Positions 6,741-13,459 of a DNA stretch of 33,901 nucleotides are shown here, piece by piece. Position 1 is the stretch's first letter. Each line of letters begins with the position of its first letter. Location: IMG/VR virus record IMGVR_UViG_2671180699_000001, positions 1 to 33,901 of that record. One strand, given 5' to 3'. Source of the DNA: a virus (Duplodnaviria > Heunggongvirae > Uroviricota > Caudoviricetes). The translations under genes and the position numbers were made by a program. Below the pieces are notes generated by a model that was not told the origin of the DNA, did no database searches, and worked only from the letters and a program-made list of their open reading frames with translations.

Positions 6741-7151
6741 TTAGTGATTCAGGCCGTTACCGCGTCCGTCGAGAAAAACTTCTACGAGCAAATCACGGGT
6801 ATAAGTGCGCTCGATGCCGCGATGCAGATAAAGCCGTCCGCGTAAATTAGCTGATGCAGTCCAGGTACCATCTTTGTGTTTGACCAGCATTCCTGGCATG
6901 ACCGCACCGCGATTAACGGTCTGCGTTCCGTAATGTTGATGAACCATAAAAACTCCTGCCCGTAAGCTGGGCTGCTGAACATATAGAGACTTCTGCGCGT
7001 ATTCAGGCGGTGGATGGCCGCCGGTTGTCATAACTAAGCCGCCTCGTTGAAGCGACTGAGGTATAAAGTGTTGTGTTGATTTCAGCTGGTCACACCGACG
7101 TTCACGCGTCCGTTTCACCCCTCGCACTCCCCGAAGCCTGCTGAAATTCAA
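6741..7151 (-). CDS. First ORF of the pL operon, hypothetical; Arg-rich N-terminus (KRTRERR) in the N-antiterminator position, C-terminal part in the kil position
   Basis: Track ORF 136 aa with non-ATG start; internal ATG with GAGG upstream at 7031 would give 96 aa; no confident family assignment. Confidence 0.35.
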
Positions 7152-7169
7152 ACTGCGGATCTAAGCGGT

Positions 7170-7219
7170 CATCGCAACGGTGAAACAGGTGGTTACCGTA
7201 TCGTTGTGTCGTTGCGATG
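7170..7219. repeat. Perfect 10-bp inverted repeat (CATCGCAACG … CGTTGCGATG) with 30-nt spacer in the pL leader
   Basis: Read directly; lies immediately downstream of the putative pL -10 on the minus strand. Confidence 0.7.
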
Positions 7220-7225
7220 AATTTA

Positions 7226-7262
7226 ATTTAAAACTATAGTTGTTTTATCGTCAACAACAAAA
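7226..7262 (-). promoter_or_regulatory. Putative pL promoter with overlapping operator (oL)
   Basis: Minus strand -35 TTGACG, 17-bp spacer, -10 TTAAAT; operator TTGTTGTTGAC-N6-AAAACAAC closely matches the oR site. Confidence 0.45.
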
Positions 7263-7387
7263 GTTGTTTTGTCGGTTGTTTTAAATATAACTGGTTGTAT
7301 TTAGGATGGATTTATTTTGTGACTTGCATCGCATAGCGATAACTGAAGTGAGGTGTGGTGGTTTTTTGGACGGTATGAGTTATGAGG

Positions 7388-7420
7388 GGGAGGAAAAGAA
7401 AACCCGGCGCGGTTGCCGGG
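7388..7420 (-). terminator. Rho-independent terminator after the lipoprotein gene (tImm-like)
   Basis: Stem CCCGGC / GCCGGG with 6-nt loop, followed on the minus strand by TTTTCTTTTCC. Confidence 0.6.
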
Positions 7421-7428
7421 TATGATTA

Positions 7429-7809
7429 TCAGTCAGCCCAACCTGATTTCGAGTTTATTTGGGTTTCTGACATTGTGTATTTCTTAATCGTGTCATCGTT
7501 AAAAAGAATAGTAAGTTCTTTTTTCGTACCGTTCGTTCCATTATGGAATAATCCATAGAATGGAATAAAAGTGGTGCCATTAACTTTTACTTTTGCAAAG
7601 GCGTACTTCCAGATCTCGTTTCCACTGTCAGTATATGAAACAGCATCAGGAGAACCAAAGTAAGATTTAACCTCATTCTTGGTTGTTTTACCTTCCTGAA
7701 GTTTAGACTGGACACTAATTTCAGTTTCATTTTTGAGTTGCTGGTTGCCTGAAGAAGCACACCCAGCCAATACAGATGCCATCATGGCAGCGATTAGGAT
7801 TTTTCTCAT
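7429..7809 (-). CDS. Lipoprotein (126 aa) encoded downstream of cI in the rexAB position
   Basis: Signal peptide with lipobox LAGC (MRKILIAAMMASVLAGCASS); AT-rich; co-oriented with and immediately downstream of the repressor gene. Confidence 0.8.
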   Translation of the reverse strand: MRKILIAAMMASVLAGCASSGNQQLKNETEISVQSKLQEGKTTKNEVKSYFGSPDAVSYTDSGNEIWKYAFAKVKVNGTTFIPFYGLFHNGTNGTKKELTILFNDDTIKKYTMSETQINSKSGWAD

Positions 7810-8038
7810 TTTATGTTTCCATTCATTATAATCAGAAACATCTTAACATAATGATTCGAAATAAAAACCGCTACGAGATAGGGGGACATTTTGCTGACAG
7901 TAGCAACAAATCTCAGCTAACAACGAGAATATTTACTGAAATATGCAAACAGATTTGGCGTTCTTATAGAGAATTTAGTGCAATATCTAATCCGAGTGGT
8001 ATAAACCTTAACCTTCGCTCCCTTAAGTCGTAGATAAA

Positions 8039-8728
8039 TTAACCATGCTTCCTGTACGTCTGCGGCATGCTTCCAATGACCTTACCGAATATGAACACCC
8101 GGTTCATCTCGTCTTTCTCGATCGGGTCCCACGGCGAGTAGCTCTTGTTATCAGAGATAACCAGCAGCTTATCCTTCATCATTTGAAGACGTTTTACATG
8201 GGCAGTGTCGTCGTACAGAAACGCATAGATGCCATCACCGTCGAAAGATTTAACAGTGATATCAACGAACAGCAGGTCACCTGGTTCGATCGTCCCTGAC
8301 ATGCTGTCACCTCGCACGTTAATGATGCGGATATTTTCCGCCTTCCTGCCATCGAACATGTGACGAGCATCGTCAAACGAGTACTCAACCGAGCGTAGAA
8401 CTTCTACAAACTCACGGTTGATTACACCTGGCCCGGCACTGACTTCTATATCAAGAACGTCAATTTTGAAGTATTTGGAATGGCTGACAGTTGATTGTAT
8501 TGGTTGCACTGTACTGTCTGACATATTTCCAACGCCAGAAGATAACCATTCTGCGCGCACACCCAAAGCGTTCGCGATCTCCACGATTTTAGTTGTTTGG
8601 TTAGCTTTCCCTGTTTCGATTTTCTGAATAGCAGCCTGGCTAACCCCGACCAAATCCCCAAGCGCCTTTTGTGTAAGGCCTCGCGCTAATCTGGCTTCTT
8701 TAAGTCTTTCTGAGAGTGTTGTTTTCAT
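8039..8728 (-). CDS. cI: CI-type prophage repressor (HTH_XRE N-terminal domain plus S24 LexA-like peptidase domain, 229 aa)
   Basis: HTH (LTQKALGDLVGVSQAAIQKIE), Ala-Gly cleavage site (SAGPG), catalytic Ser (GDSMSG) and Lys (HVKRL). Confidence 0.93.
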   Translation of the reverse strand: MKTTLSERLKEARLARGLTQKALGDLVGVSQAAIQKIETGKANQTTKIVEIANALGVRAEWLSSGVGNMSDSTVQPIQSTVSHSKYFKIDVLDIEVSAGPGVINREFVEVLRSVEYSFDDARHMFDGRKAENIRIINVRGDSMSGTIEPGDLLFVDITVKSFDGDGIYAFLYDDTAHVKRLQMMKDKLLVISDNKSYSPWDPIEKDEMNRVFIFGKVIGSMPQTYRKHG

Positions 8729-8767
8729 AGATCAAATGTACAACCAAGGTTTTATTTCATCAAACGA

Positions 8768-8803
8768 AAATGGTTGTTGACTAAAAACAACCATAGTTTT
8801 AAT
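8768..8803 (+). promoter_or_regulatory. oR operator with pR promoter; divergent cI/cro control region
   Basis: Inverted repeat ATGGTTGTT-N7-AACAACCAT overlapping -35 TTGACT, 17-bp spacer, -10 TAATCT; GGAGG Shine-Dalgarno before cro. Confidence 0.6.
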
Positions 8804-8832
8804 CTTTATTCGGATTAACCACGGAGGTTGTT

Positions 8833-9063
8833 ATGAACCCAGCAATCAAAACAGCGATCAATATCGTTGGTTCACAAAAGAAACTAGGCGATGCCTGCGA
8901 AGTTTCACAGCAGGCCGTCTATAAGTGGCTTCACAACAAAGCAAAGGTATCCCCTGAACATGTCGGCAGCATTGTTACGGCTACTGGTGGAGTTGTGAAG
9001 GCATACCAGATTCGCCCGGATCTTCCGAAGTTGTTTCCACACACCGAAAAGAACGCAGCTTAA
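8833..9063 (+). CDS. cro: Cro-like HTH regulator (76 aa)
   Basis: Small HTH protein (…CEVSQQAVYKWL…) divergent from the repressor. Confidence 0.8.
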   Translation: MNPAIKTAINIVGSQKKLGDACEVSQQAVYKWLHNKAKVSPEHVGSIVTATGGVVKAYQIRPDLPKLFPHTEKNAA

Positions 9064-9075
9064 ATTTCCATTTCA

Positions 9076-9088
9076 CGCTCTTTAACAA
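9076..9088 (+). promoter_or_regulatory. boxA-like antitermination element (CGCTCTTTAACAA) downstream of cro (nutR position)
   Basis: Near-identity to the boxA consensus (rrn boxA GCTCTTTAACAA; lambda CGCTCTTA); no obvious boxB hairpin follows. Confidence 0.45.
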
Positions 9089-9132
9089 TAAGCAATCAAC
9101 TTAACAGTCAATTCAAACTAAAGGAGTCAATT

Positions 9133-9672
9133 ATGCAACCACTTACATACCAACAGACTAGCGGATTTATTCCGACTGCGGTGATAAATCGTTCTCAAAC
9201 AAAACAAGCTCCAGGCCACGAAAAAATCCGTGATGCCGTCCGCGCCTGGTCGGCTGTAGATAATCAGGATGTCGTTGCCGCACTCATTGTGAATGAGTAT
9301 CGGGAGCAGGGCGACGGCACCATCGATTTCCCTGATGATGTCAGCCGTGCACGCCAGAAGCTGTTCCGCTTCCTCGATAACAAATTCGATTCTGAAAAAT
9401 ACCGAAATAACGTGCGTGAACTGACCCCGGCAATTCTGGCGGTACTACCGCTGGAATATCGCGGTTACCTGGTTGAGCAGGATAGCTTCATGACTCGGTT
9501 GGCTGAAATGGAAAAGGAACTCAGTGAGGCAAAACAGGCTGTCATTCTCAACGCACCACGCCACCAGAAACTGAAGGAAATGAGTGAAGGTATTGTGTCG
9601 ATGTTTCGTGTGGACCCGGATCTGGCTGGTCCATTAATGGCGATGGTGACCACCATGCTGGGGGCAATATGA
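9133..9672 (+). CDS. YdaT-family regulator (CII functional analogue position, 179 aa)
   Basis: Motif LTPAILAVLPLEYRGYL resembles the YdaT family as recalled; sits between cro and O. Confidence 0.65.
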   Translation: MQPLTYQQTSGFIPTAVINRSQTKQAPGHEKIRDAVRAWSAVDNQDVVAALIVNEYREQGDGTIDFPDDVSRARQKLFRFLDNKFDSEKYRNNVRELTPAILAVLPLEYRGYLVEQDSFMTRLAEMEKELSEAKQAVILNAPRHQKLKEMSEGIVSMFRVDPDLAGPLMAMVTTMLGAI

Positions 9673-12040: not shown

Positions 12041-13459
12041 TTAGAAAATAATGTTTGCTATATCCGAGATAGCATTTAAAGAACCTCTGTGGTCACTTCC
12101 TGTTTTAGGTAAAATATAGGAATATCGAGGGTCTTCATTATATGTTAACTTCCAGTGTTTTCCATCGCTTGACGCACTGAAACCTAAGTCCTTTAAATTT
12201 CTTTGTGTTGCGCTATCCATGCTTCTGTAACCTGTTAAAGTCCTTTTAAGTAATTGGCGGCGACTCTCGGTTTCTTTATTGTATTCATTATTGGCAATTA
12301 GGGATGATAAGATATGGTAGCTTCTACCAAATTCATTTTTATTTTTTATGGCAGTTTTTAGTGCGTCAATAATTATATTTTTGATTTCTCCATCAAAAAA
12401 ATCAGTCTCTTCACCAGCATTAAGCACAATGCTTCCTTGGGCTGAAGCTTGTGATTGAAGAGTGCGTACTCTGTGCTCTAAAGAGGAGATCTTATGCTTA
12501 AGATCTTCTATTTGGTCATCTTTCGCAACATTATCGGCTTCGTAAAGCGCCATCAGTTCGCGTGTGTATTCTCCTCTTTCTTTGAGTGAGTTAATAGAGT
12601 CTTTCGTTTTTCTGGTTTGTATCTCACTCCATCCACTATCTGAGACAGGAGCCATTGTAGTCGTAGCTCTTACAACATCATCAAATAACTCATCTTCAAA
12701 TTCTTTTGCGGTTTTCTCACCACGGCGATAAAAACTGATATTTTGACCCCGTGGCCAATAGATACCAACAGCACCAGCATAGGCATTTTTAGCATTTGTC
12801 TCATTTTTTAGCTTAATAGAAAATAGTCTATTGCTAGGCTCAATTAATACATGTGCTAATCCGCATACCTTTCTTGCAAGGCGTTCTGGGATGATATTGT
12901 GAGCATGTTCATTAAAAAAATACTTGGAGCTAACGTATATTATTGGTAGTCTGTTGTCAGTTTCACCATTTATAACTTTAGCTGCTATATTTAAATGTTC
13001 ATCAGTATCATCTAAGGAATGAGGTTCGACTGACACCTTGAAAATATCATCAAGACCACCAGAAAATTTATCAATCAATCTCATAACAACTAATGGTTTC
13101 TTAGGTTGCGGGGCTAGATAAGCTGCATCTTGGCTTACAACGCTAGATTCCACCTGAATCCACATGGTATCAGTTTTGAGATTTTTATTAATTGAAATAT
13201 CTGTTACCCATTTGTGTGGCTCAGATATTTTCGAATACCTAAAACAGCCTAAACTAGTATCTTTGTTTTTATAAGTTATTATATCAATTCTTTCATTTTT
13301 AGACTCTATGAAGTACTCCTCGCTTTTATAATCACATACTAATTGTGCTGGAATAAAAGTTGTATGTGGTGAGTCGTTTACCCAAGAAAAACATTCATTA
13401 AAGATCTCAGCTAGAGATGTGGAGTTTGAAACATAAAAACCAGTTGAGAAATATTTCAT
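12041..13459 (-). CDS. Orphan 472-aa protein in the ren-nin insertion; function unknown, candidate anti-phage/abortive-infection protein
   Basis: Long uninterrupted ORF on the strand opposite to the replication/nin operon; low GC; central coiled-coil (EDLKHKISSLEHRVRTLQSQ); no TM helices, no Walker A seen. Confidence 0.75.
   Translation of the reverse strand: MKYFSTGFYVSNSTSLAEIFNECFSWVNDSPHTTFIPAQLVCDYKSEEYFIESKNERIDIITYKNKDTSLGCFRYSKISEPHKWVTDISINKNLKTDTMWIQVESSVVSQDAAYLAPQPKKPLVVMRLIDKFSGGLDDIFKVSVEPHSLDDTDEHLNIAAKVINGETDNRLPIIYVSSKYFFNEHAHNIIPERLARKVCGLAHVLIEPSNRLFSIKLKNETNAKNAYAGAVGIYWPRGQNISFYRRGEKTAKEFEDELFDDVVRATTTMAPVSDSGWSEIQTRKTKDSINSLKERGEYTRELMALYEADNVAKDDQIEDLKHKISSLEHRVRTLQSQASAQGSIVLNAGEETDFFDGEIKNIIIDALKTAIKNKNEFGRSYHILSSLIANNEYNKETESRRQLLKRTLTGYRSMDSATQRNLKDLGFSASSDGKHWKLTYNEDPRYSYILPKTGSDHRGSLNAISDIANIIF

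Follow-up and report, generated by a model that had tools for sequence, protein, structure and literature searches.

Operators of phage 434 are known from established structural work to be 14-bp sequences of the form ACAA-N6-TTGT, in which ACAA is outermost, and classical lambdoid Cro proteins occupy the same operators as CI. PaaR2 of CP-933P, whose locus also includes a YdaS-family Cro, is not known to carry an S24 self-cleavage domain. The operators of CP-933P are 18-bp palindromes with the half-site GTTTAGTAA (PMC8630535). In this report, we compare these and other systems with a locus in a 33,901-nucleotide virus sequence (IMG/VR record IMGVR_UViG_2671180699_000001), the whole of which we call the window.

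Positions 7225-8832 of the window are most likely the immunity region of a lambda-like temperate phage. This segment is ~99.8% identical to Escherichia phage PhiR26_1, and the immunity region is found in 1,521 of 5,426 complete E. coli genomes. Divergent cI (minus) and cro (plus) genes flank a short control region, with a YdaT-type CII equivalent (Pfam YdaT_toxin, E = 4.3e-30) and the O and P replication genes on the right of the switch and exo, bet, gam and kil on its left. The initial annotation had placed oL and oR, with their early promoters, in two segments here, and this assignment to a lambdoid immunity module is borne out by the domains of CI and Cro and by this gene context. The locus has the feature set of a lambdoid CI/Cro switch, namely the gene order, a repressor with helix-turn-helix (HTH) and S24 domains, multiple operators at oR and a second set at pL. 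By analogy, CI and Cro are expected to bind these operators and to establish bistable repression. Searchable literature yielded no published account of operators, footprints or transcription starts for this immunity type. Coordinates are collected in Table 1.

Table 1. Features of the immunity region, with positions in the window; promoters and operator sites are predicted.
Feature	Positions	Strand	Description
pL	7225-7254	minus	-35 TTGACG (7254-7249); from consensus scan and conservation in 18 loci
OL1	7230-7243	minus	ACAACTATAGTTTT on the pL-sense strand; in pL spacer and -10
OL2	7254-7267		ACAACAAAAGTTGT; arms perfectly symmetric; adjoins pL -35
Two orphan ACAACC half-sites	7274-7298	minus	7279-7274 and 7298-7293; upstream of OL2
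cI	8039-8728	minus	229 aa; HTH_3 and Peptidase_S24 (Pfam)
pRM (candidate)	8735-8763	minus	-35 TTGATG (8763-8758), 17-bp spacer, -10 TACATT (8740-8735)
OR3	8740-8753	plus	ACAACCAAGGTTTT; overlaps pRM spacer and -10
OR2	8764-8777	plus	ACGAAAATGGTTGT; left arm weak, right arm consensus
oR palindrome	8770-8794		OR2 right arm, pR -35 and OR1 left arm
pR	8777-8805	plus	-35 TTGACT (8777-8782), 17-bp spacer, -10 TAATCT (8800-8805)
OR1	8787-8800	plus	ACAACCATAGTTTT; in pR spacer, overlaps -10 by 1 nt
Fourth dyad (candidate, low confidence)	8818-8831	plus	ACCACGGAGGTTGT, one mismatch; cro Shine-Dalgarno GGAG in centre
cro	8833-9063	plus	76 aa; YdaS/P22-Cro-type HTH (Pfam YdaS_toxin)

Among solved structures, that of the 434 repressor comes closest to the N-terminal domain of CI (1per, 2or1, 1r69; E = 4.9e-10 with phmmer against PDB sequences), and CI residues 5-68 pair without gaps with 434 repressor residues 2-65. 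Gln28 is kept in this alignment, as are Gln17 and Arg10 according to our own residue mapping. However, the recognition helix of this 434-like HTH (S30-Q-A-A-I-Q-K-I37) differs at the 434-numbered residues Gln29, Ser30, Glu32 and Gln33, which are Ala, Ala, Gln and Lys in CI, and the details of 434 contacts are therefore not transferable. Pfam matches cover both domains of the protein (HTH_3, E = 5e-13; Peptidase_S24, E = 1e-18). The motifs of a C-terminal S24 autopeptidase can be read off the translation: by analogy with LexA and lambda CI, we predict cleavage at Ala98-Gly99 and catalytic roles for Ser142 (in GDSM) and Lys179 (in VKRL).

The likeness to 434 thus includes the gapless CI domain with its C-terminal S24 self-cleavage domain, 14-bp operators with ACAA at the outer ends and a weakly specified centre, and three oR sites between divergent cI and cro. 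The differences are also clear. SQAAIQKI replaces TQQSIEQL in the helix; the arm, ACAAC, has 5 bp, with an invariant C as fifth base; Cro is of the YdaS/P22-Cro type, and not a paralogue of CI like 434 Cro; and the CII equivalent is YdaT-type. The specificity of 434 immunity, defined by the helix TQQSIEQ and the 434 operators, is thus not that of the helix SQAAIQK and its arm with the invariant fifth C. CI is a relative of the 434 repressor with a separate immunity type, and the phage should almost certainly be heteroimmune with 434.

Cro matches Pfam YdaS_toxin (E = 6.6e-17), with a sub-threshold match to P22_Cro, and has no homology to the N-terminal domain of CI. Its best match among solved structures is the prophage Cro 3bd1, at a weak E = 0.0055, and its putative recognition helix is VSQQAVYKW. 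Searches of NCBIfam with CI, Cro and the Pectobacterium pair discussed below gave only sub-threshold generic matches. A YdaS-family Cro and a YdaT-family CII equivalent are shared with CP-933P (PMC8630535, PMC9986795), which also has a lambda-like pRM/pR/pL layout, a leaderless repressor gene and two overlapping repeat systems. However, the paaR2 operon of CP-933P holds paaA2-parE2 toxin-antitoxin genes as well, whereas cI is alone here. We considered transferring the PaaR2/YdaS footprints to the window and rejected this because the operators are unrelated (GTTTAGTAA versus ACAAC-N4-GTTGT; PMC8630535).

Comparison with known immunity regions, as the initial annotation had suggested, also covered lambda, HK639 and the Stx1 phage PA28. 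The window shares several features with lambda: oR is tripartite, with centre-to-centre distances of 24 and 23 bp; OR2 is situated at about -42 of a predicted promoter for a leaderless cI; OR3 covers the core of pRM; another operator is found at pL, at a distance of 1.56 kb; and the place of rexAB between cI and pL is taken by an accessory (moron) gene. It differs from lambda in its 14-bp sites (17 bp in lambda), in having only two clear OL sites, in the absence of a recognisable N gene after pL, and in its Cro and CII families. HK639 and PA28 share the gene order of cI and YdaS-type cro, N-terminal domains 56-58% identical to that of CI, and three 14-bp dyads, which start as far from the cI ATG as those of the window. 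HK639 also has a long, YdaT-sized cII gene, and its pL and pR, annotated as putative, are positioned with respect to the dyads as in the window. The arm in these two phages is ATAAC and the helix SQPAIQKM, as opposed to ACAAC and SQAAIQKI, so specificity differs. HK639 is additionally annotated with a putL-like antiterminator RNA that is absent in the window. A hairpin in the pL leader was a candidate for a put-type antiterminator RNA, but it was rejected: Rfam contained no match, the leader has no similarity to the putL regions of HK022 and HK639, and the leaders of relatives are mosaic.

A further relative is chromosomal. Loci L009-L020 presumably correspond to the Pectobacterium rdgA/rdgB circuit, reportedly described by Liu et al. 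(Mol Microbiol, 1994/1996), an identification that also draws on the rdgA annotation of phage phiEt88. In these RdgA/RdgB-like systems the helix is identical (SQAAIQKIE), a perfect ACAAC-N4-GTTGT lies 12 nt upstream of the gene for the repressor, and the downstream gene, for a 116-aa activator-like protein, is preceded by a pL-like promoter in which ACAACTATAGTTTT follows TTGACA. Unlike the phage locus, they have no adjacent cro, have lost the equivalents of OR2 and OR1 at the repressor promoter, and presumably control a host regulon.

The assignments of pR and pL are plausible from sequence. In 18 related loci, T1, A2 and T6 of the pR -10 are invariant. The pL -10 could be TTAAAT (7232-7227, 17-bp spacer) or TAAATT (7230-7225, 18-bp spacer). 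For candidate pRM, all 18 loci displayed retain TTG of the -35, and the -10 is invariant at A2 and T6. Its predicted start coincides with the A of the cI ATG (8728), which would make the cI mRNA leaderless. A leaderless cI is also implied by the fixed distance between OR3 and the ATG: in the 27 of 30 loci whose match begins at the start codon, OR3 begins 12 nt from the cI start, or 13 nt in two loci. In the window, the OR3 centre is at -18.5 relative to the cI start.

We consider the most likely binding unit of CI to be a 14-bp dyad, ACAAC-N4-GTT(G/T)T, predicted to occur three times at oR and twice at oL. Perfect matches to ACAACNNNNGTTKT occur at four sites in the 33.9-kb window, all of them in oL or oR. 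These amount to 5 strand-matches, compared with 0.13 expected, and 0 of 100 shuffles reached this number; beyond the control regions, matches with one mismatch are at chance level. The dyads have the same polarity and spacing as 434 operators, which, together with the 434-like CI domain, supports the 14-bp register. At oR, the centres are 8746.5, 8770.5 and 8793.5, and the geometry is the same in 15 of 18 cro-adjacent loci and off by 1 bp in the other three. OR1 is conserved in the 18 loci; in L021, L023 and L025 it is flipped inside the same 14-bp frame (AAAACTATAGTTGT). OR2 has the consensus ACGAAWATRGTTGT, fixed 23 bp from OR1 in these loci. At one end it adjoins the -35 of pRM, and at the other end it includes the first T of the pR -35; its centre lies at -42.5 from the predicted pRM start and about -41.5 from the predicted pR start. 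The left arm of OR2, ACGAA, is conserved yet off-consensus, so occupancy of OR2 would require cooperativity.

At oL, the centres are 7236.5 and 7260.5 (24 bp apart). OL1 matches ACAACNNNNGTTKT perfectly and was found in all 30 same-helix loci. A perfect OL2 dyad with a freely varying centre, 24 bp from OL1 (23 bp in L024), is present in the window and 12 relatives. The initial annotation anticipated that a motif search would find three sites per operator region. This expectation holds for oR, but at oL there are two sites plus orphan half-sites, and no third full site is found ~24 bp past OL2. The orphan ACAACC half-sites start 12 and 31 bp from the start of OL2, and neither has a recognisable partner arm. 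The one at 31 bp is kept in most relatives, yet within the immunity type both are less constrained than the arms of OL1 and OL2. They possibly represent a weak OL3.

Sequence variation follows the 14-bp register. The 80 viral contigs that carry this immunity type differ in only 1 of the 50 columns of the arms, compared with 36 of 139 other columns (p = 5e-5). The OL1 arms have no variable column, and the OL2 arms are invariant around a variable centre. In 30 loci with the same helix, 24 of them distinct, 14-bp operators with outer ACAA have invariant or nearly invariant ACAAC-N4-GTTKT arms and a nearly free centre. For the OR3 class, all five positions of the left arm are invariant at 2.0 bits, and those of the right arm also have 2.0 bits except for the G/T position (1.3). 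The centre has 1.0, 0.2, 0.4 and 1.3 bits, and the first three positions of the right flank have 0.2-0.7 bits. The arms also change with the recognition helix. SQAAIQK (window, UPF_BP1) and SQANIQK (phiEt88) go with ACAAC-type arms, SQPAIQKM (HK639, PA28) with ATAAC-N4-GTTAT in three sites 24-25 bp apart, and AQPTIWRL (SPLA1b, PhiR68_2, Klebsiella phage 6 LV-2017 and Providencia) with the ATACG-N4-CGTAT type.

A different pairing of the same half-sites had been proposed originally, in which the operator is a 19-20-bp palindrome, GTTGT-N9/10-ACAAC, with one main site per promoter and a repressor dimer on the -35. The half-site itself, GTTGT(T), is sound, being the complement of the conserved arm ACAAC, and inverted repeats flanking a TTGAC -35 indeed exist at both operators. 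At oR, the arms ATGGTTGTT and AACAACCAT (8770-8778 and 8786-8794) are 9 nt long and perfectly complementary, with 7 nt between them, around TTGACT. The oL element, GTTGTTGACGATAAAACAAC (7239-7258, minus), includes TTGACG. Such palindromes are improbable by chance: GTTGT-N9/10-ACAAC occurs 3 times in the window versus 0.09 expected, two being these elements and the third, at 26262, unrelated. Nor does counting perfect dyads decide the register, and an unbiased enumeration of all perfect 5-Nk-5 dyads was rejected for this purpose. In 17 distinct related intergenic sequences, ACAAC-N4-GTTGT is found in 13 and GTTGT-N9-ACAAC, almost as widespread, in 12.

The -35 palindrome is nonetheless an improbable operator. 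The two elements were described as nearly the same, but they are not one element: the gap between the arms is 9 bp at oR and 10 bp at oL. This difference is consistent (of 18 loci, 16 have 9 bp at pR and 14 have 10 bp at pL), and variants in single contigs have gaps of 8 or 10 bp at pR; in contrast, the spacing within dyads is always 4 bp. The likeness of oL and oR also runs past the palindrome toward the -10, as ACAACYATAGTTTTAA, an early sign that the unit is something other than the palindrome. Six arms are left unpaired by it: both arms of OR3, the left arm of OR2, the right arm of OR1, the distal arm of OL2 and the -10-proximal arm of OL1. These are equally conserved (arms outside the palindromes have 1 variable column of 30, versus the 36 of 139 non-arm columns, p = 0.003, in the 80 contigs), and re-pairing the half-sites as ACAAC-N4-GTTGT accounts for all arms. 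In 13 rdgA-like loci (12 Pectobacterium, 1 Samsonia), a perfect 14-mer lies 12 nt upstream of the repressor gene, and in 12 of the 13 no GTTGT-N9/10-ACAAC is nearby. In HK639 and PA28, the three 14-bp dyads are perfect and the gap across the promoter is 11 bp. Moreover, the half-sites of the palindrome face away from its centre, a polarity opposite to that used by the 434 repressor, and their arm centres are 14-15 bp apart, a poor fit to a 434-type dimer. The half-sites were therefore probably paired wrongly, and each -35 palindrome is probably made up of the arms that neighbouring O2 and O1 sites turn toward each other.

One observation fits the palindrome better. In L021, L023 and L025, both arms at the pR -35 are altered together, from GTTGT/ACAAC to GTTTT/AAAAC, a change that retains the palindrome across the promoter and, if the 14-mer model holds, makes OR2 a very weak site. 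This paired change may be a single evolutionary event. It could also be taken to favour a switch in which CI uses the 14-bp dyads and the unrelated Cro uses the overlapping outward-facing repeats, or another subset of sites, so that the two proteins are discriminated by register. The absence of homology between Cro and the CI N-terminal domain points the same way. On the other hand, classical lambdoid Cro shares the operators of CI, the putative Cro helix (VSQQAV...) starts like that of CI (VSQAAI...), as in the site-sharing CI and Cro of 434, and the variable gap speaks against any site of fixed geometry across the -35. A possible precedent is CP-933P, in which the PaaR2 and YdaS footprints hold two overlapping repeat systems of ambiguous protein assignment (PMC8630535). 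On balance, we regard such an arrangement as having only a slim chance of being correct.

We assign a similarly small likelihood to a more elaborate form in which both registers are functional, with CI on the 14-mers and the YdaS-type Cro on the outward arms or on the orphan ACAACC half-sites, and in which the candidate fourth dyad would be both an operator and an RNA hairpin that hides GGAG. This dyad is located at about +6 to +19 of pR and has equivalents in relatives (ACAACGGAGGTTTT and similar). Its distance from OR1 varies from 27 to 31 bp, which indicates that it is tied to the ribosome-binding site and is not phased with OR1. If true, this would be a dual-register switch, in which antagonists are told apart by register and not by graded affinity for shared sites. 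Least probable of all, and very unlikely in our view, is that the repeats are promoter-associated sequences or hairpin- or terminator-like elements conserved for reasons other than protein binding, for although a simple scan finds the oR palindrome terminator-like on both strands and arms overlap promoter hexamers by 1 nt, the stem has only three G-C pairs, the sites lie upstream of the predicted starts, the arms co-vary with the repressor recognition helix across immunity types while the hexamers remain sigma-70-like, and dyad symmetry with a free centre is the signature of a protein dimer.

We therefore return to a lambda-like immunity region in which a 434-type, self-cleaving CI recognizes 14-bp dyads, with a tripartite oR and with OL1 and OL2 at pL; taken jointly, these elements are very probably correct. 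From this arrangement we infer CI binding, its cooperativity, the order in which the sites are filled, the activation of pRM and the points at which transcription starts. CI dimers would bind the ACAAC-N4-GTT(G/T)T dyads. Occupancy of OR1 and OR2, which cover the pR spacer, its -10 and the edge of its -35, would turn off cro and the early rightward genes, and OL1 and OL2 would cover pL likewise. OR2, at about -42 of the predicted leaderless cI promoter pRM, corresponds in position to the site that lambda CI uses to activate transcription of its own gene, whereas OR3, over the pRM spacer and -10, would provide negative autoregulation at high CI concentration. Cro is expected to act on the same sites with reversed preference. 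RecA-stimulated self-cleavage at Ala98-Gly99 would then lead to prophage induction.

This switch is an ordinary new example of the well-known, textbook lambdoid type. It offers a lesson in method, in that neighbouring dyads yield spurious palindromes around the sequence that intervenes, which here is the -35. The operator definition provides a search string for CI-controlled promoters and a means to tell homoimmune from heteroimmune pairs of these prophages. The combinations SQAAIQK/ACAAC, SQPAIQK/ATAAC and AQPTIWR/ATACG form a natural series of specificity change in 434-type repressors. Finally, the rdgA/rdgB-like DNA-damage circuit on the Pectobacterium chromosome has the same helix and the same operator, which links it to this phage module.

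The DNA examined here comprises the early control region of a temperate lambdoid phage, with 99.8% identity to Escherichia phage PhiR26_1 over positions 7000-9200. On the evidence of its sequence and of related loci, the predicted operator unit is most likely a 14-bp dyad, ACAAC-N4-GTTKT, and not a palindrome surrounding the -35 hexamer, as the initial annotation had proposed for both early promoters.

Genes, promoters and predicted control sites of the immunity region
Feature	Position	Strand	Description
exo, bet, gam, kil		minus	left end of gene order
pL	TTGACG 7254-7249		between kil and lipoprotein moron; 17- or 18-bp spacer, then TTAAAT or TAAATT
OL1	7230-7243		perfect dyad
oL palindrome	7239-7258	minus	GTTGTTGACGATAAAACAAC
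OL2	7254-7267		perfect dyad
lipoprotein moron	7429-7809	minus	
cI	8039-8728	minus	HTH_3 and Peptidase_S24 domains
pRM candidate	TTGATG 8763-8758, TACATT 8740-8735		17-bp spacer
OR3	8740-8753		perfect dyad
OR2	8764-8777		ACGAAAATGGTTGT; right arm consensus, left arm weak
oR palindrome	8770-8794		ATGGTTGTT / AACAACCAT; perfect 9-nt arms, 7-nt loop containing TTGACT
pR	TTGACT 8777-8782, TAATCT 8800-8805		17-bp spacer
OR1	8787-8800		perfect dyad
cro	8833-9063	plus	YdaS/P22-Cro type
YdaT-type CII equivalent, then O and P			right of cro

Dyads were defined by pairing each ACAAC with a GTTKT 4 bp downstream. In the whole window, perfect matches occur at four sites, all within the oL and oR control regions (5 strand-matches vs 0.13 expected), and one-mismatch matches elsewhere are at chance level. 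Counting OR2 as a fifth site, oR holds three sites with centre spacings of 24 and 23 bp, and oL holds two, 24 bp apart; the three sites per operator anticipated by the initial annotation are thus found at oR but not at oL.

The palindromic elements overlapping the -35 hexamers are both present in the sequence, and GTTGT-N9/10-ACAAC occurs 3 times in the window, compared with 0.09 expected. Each palindrome is composed of the right arm of O2 and the left arm of O1. The arms are separated by 9 bp at oR and by 10 bp at oL, and the likeness between oL and oR runs beyond the palindrome on the -10 side, as ACAACYATAGTTTTAA; both features argue against the palindrome as the unit. The proposed half-site and operator regions stand, and the unit spanning the -35 hexamer most likely does not. 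Counts of perfect dyads do not separate the two registers (13 of 17 sequences for the 14-mer, 12 of 17 for the palindrome), and in three related loci both arms beside the -35 hexamer are altered jointly to GTTTT/AAAAC, which favours a unit spanning the hexamer. However, that register requires half-sites of polarity opposite to 434, with centres 14-15 bp apart, and GTTGT-N9/10-ACAAC is missing near the perfect 14-mer in 12 of 13 rdgA-like chromosomal loci. Moreover, the gap across the -35 hexamer is not constant, being mostly 9 bp at pR (16 of 18 loci) and 10 bp at pL (14 of 18), whereas spacing within the dyad is constant throughout the 18 loci. We conclude that the palindromic register is most likely wrong.

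A scan with the CI N-terminal domain, using one genome per species, yielded 53 loci, 29 of which retain the recognition helix SQAAIQKIE. Across the window and these 29 loci, the left arm of OR3-class sites is invariant (2.0 bits) and the right arm carries 2.0 bits, except for 1.3 at its G/T position; the centre (1.0/0.2/0.4/1.3 bits) and the first three right-flank positions (0.2-0.7 bits) are nearly free. The layout OR3-24-OR2-23-OR1, with OR2 consensus ACGAAWATRGTTGT, is maintained in the window and seventeen cro-adjacent loci. OL2 in the window and 12 relatives is a perfect dyad of variable centre lying 24 bp from OL1 (23 bp in one locus, L024), independent of the cargo between cI and pL. 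Among eighty viral contigs whose encoded N-terminal domains are 99-100% identical, variation affects 1 of the 50 arm columns in the five 14-mers, versus 36 of the 139 remaining columns (p = 5e-5); for arm columns outside the palindromes, the figure is 1 of 30 (p = 0.003). Single contigs have a 1-bp insertion or deletion in the pR -35 gap, which could be homopolymer sequencing errors.

When the recognition helix changes, the arms change, and the 5-N4-5 frame and offset from the cI ATG do not. HK639 and PA28 (SQPAIQKM) have three ATAAC-N4-GTTAT dyads 24-25 bp apart; SPLA1b, PhiR68_2, Klebsiella phage 6 LV-2017 and Providencia (AQPTIWRL) have the ATACG-N4-CGTAT type; and UPF_BP1 (SQAAIQKL) and phiEt88 (SQANIQKL) have ACAAC-type arms. 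The Ala-to-Pro change lies at the equivalent of 434 Gln29, and the altered base is arm position 2; in 434 complexes, Gln29 reads base pairs 2-3. Among solved structures, CI residues 1-78 match best to the DNA-binding domain of the 434 repressor (E = 4.9e-10, no gaps), with Gln28 conserved and, by our mapping of the alignment, Gln17 and Arg10 as well. The 434 operators are 14-bp ACAA-N6-TTGT elements with ACAA outermost, equal in length and polarity to the window's dyads. Thus, the window carries a lambdoid switch with predicted operators of the 434 class, yet it is not of the 434 immunity type, because helix and arm both differ. The CP-933P module shares its Cro and CII families with the window; its operators are unrelated (PMC8630535).

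The diagnostic TTG, A2 and T6 promoter positions are conserved across relatives. For matches that begin at the start codon, the start of OR3 is 12 nt away from the cI ATG (13 nt in two loci); this fixed distance places the predicted pRM start at the A of the ATG, so that cI would be leaderless, as in lambda. The OR2 centre is at -42.5 from pRM and about -41.5 from pR, and oR is nearly mirror-symmetric around OR2. Repression of pR and pL would come from CI dimers at OR1/OR2 and OL1/OL2, CI at OR2 would be positioned to activate pRM, and OR3 would provide negative autoregulation. Cro is expected to bind the sites of CI; its putative helix (VSQQAV...) starts like that of CI (VSQAAI...). CI has Ala98-Gly99, Ser142 and Lys179, which predict RecA-dependent self-cleavage and SOS induction.

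Several other elements accompany the switch. A fourth near-dyad, ACCACGGAGGTTGT (8818-8831), is centred on the cro Shine-Dalgarno GGAG; in relatives its left arm is perfect consensus (ACAACGGAGGTTTT), and the separation from OR1 ranges between 27 and 31 bp. This element may serve as a downstream operator or, at the RNA level, form a hairpin hiding the ribosome-binding site. Upstream of OL2, conserved orphan ACAACC half-sites without partner arms (7274-7279 and 7293-7298, minus strand) begin 12 and 31 bp away from the start of OL2; such half-sites also occur in Pectobacterium rdgB-type promoters. The predicted pL leader (7120-7222, minus strand) has a hairpin with an 11-bp stem (7220-7210 pairing with 7179-7169) and a second hairpin (MFE -34 kcal/mol, z = -2.75). 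It has no Rfam match and does not resemble HK022 or HK639 putL, and the interval from pL to kil has no N-like gene. In relatives the pL leaders are of mosaic makeup, many with a classic boxA instead. A perfect boxA, GCTCTTTAACA, occupies the nutR position at 9077-9087 (plus strand), with cro on one side and the YdaT-type cII gene on the other. The window contains no other match, although 52 of 100 shuffles yield one with at most one mismatch; an obvious boxB hairpin downstream and a recognizable N gene are both lacking.

The lipoprotein moron occupies the lambda rexAB position between cI and pL, with a terminator-like site at 7421-7402 (minus strand). It has a weak BamE-domain match, and E. 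coli genomes annotate it as BamE-like. Relatives carry GevT/GevA or other cargo at this location or none at all, and the form without cargo is the most frequent one in E. coli. Downstream of ren, a 472-aa ORF (12041-13459, minus strand) is the counterpart of a PhiR26_1 gene annotated as PD-lambda-1, an anti-phage defence gene.

In thirteen rdgA-like loci (12 Pectobacterium, 1 Samsonia), a perfect 14-mer precedes the repressor gene by 12 nt, and each locus also has a pL-like promoter containing ACAACTATAGTTTT ahead of the downstream gene, a 116-aa ORF in L016. On these chromosomes, loci L009-L020 and L015 encode a CI-like S24 repressor with the window phage's recognition helix and 14-bp operator; in L016, the sole locus with ORFs listed, the 116-aa product is activator-like. 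In L009-L020, a one-mismatch 14-mer, ACAACCAAAATTGT (coding strand), lies about 145 nt inside the repressor gene and encodes QTTKIV; it is probably a coding coincidence, and the corresponding place in the window's cI matches less well. The L009-L020 and L015 circuit is probably the RdgA/RdgB DNA-damage circuit. If so, that circuit would derive from an immunity module of this phage type by domestication.

A published description of window-type ACAAC-N4-GTTKT operators was not found in the searchable literature, and the carrier phages are recent, uncharacterized isolates. The immunity module occurs in 28% of complete E. coli genomes: the segment 8600-8860, covering the cI N-terminus and oR, matches 1,521 of 5,426, with identity of at least 95% in every case except one. 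This immunity type is among the commonest prophage immunity types in E. coli.
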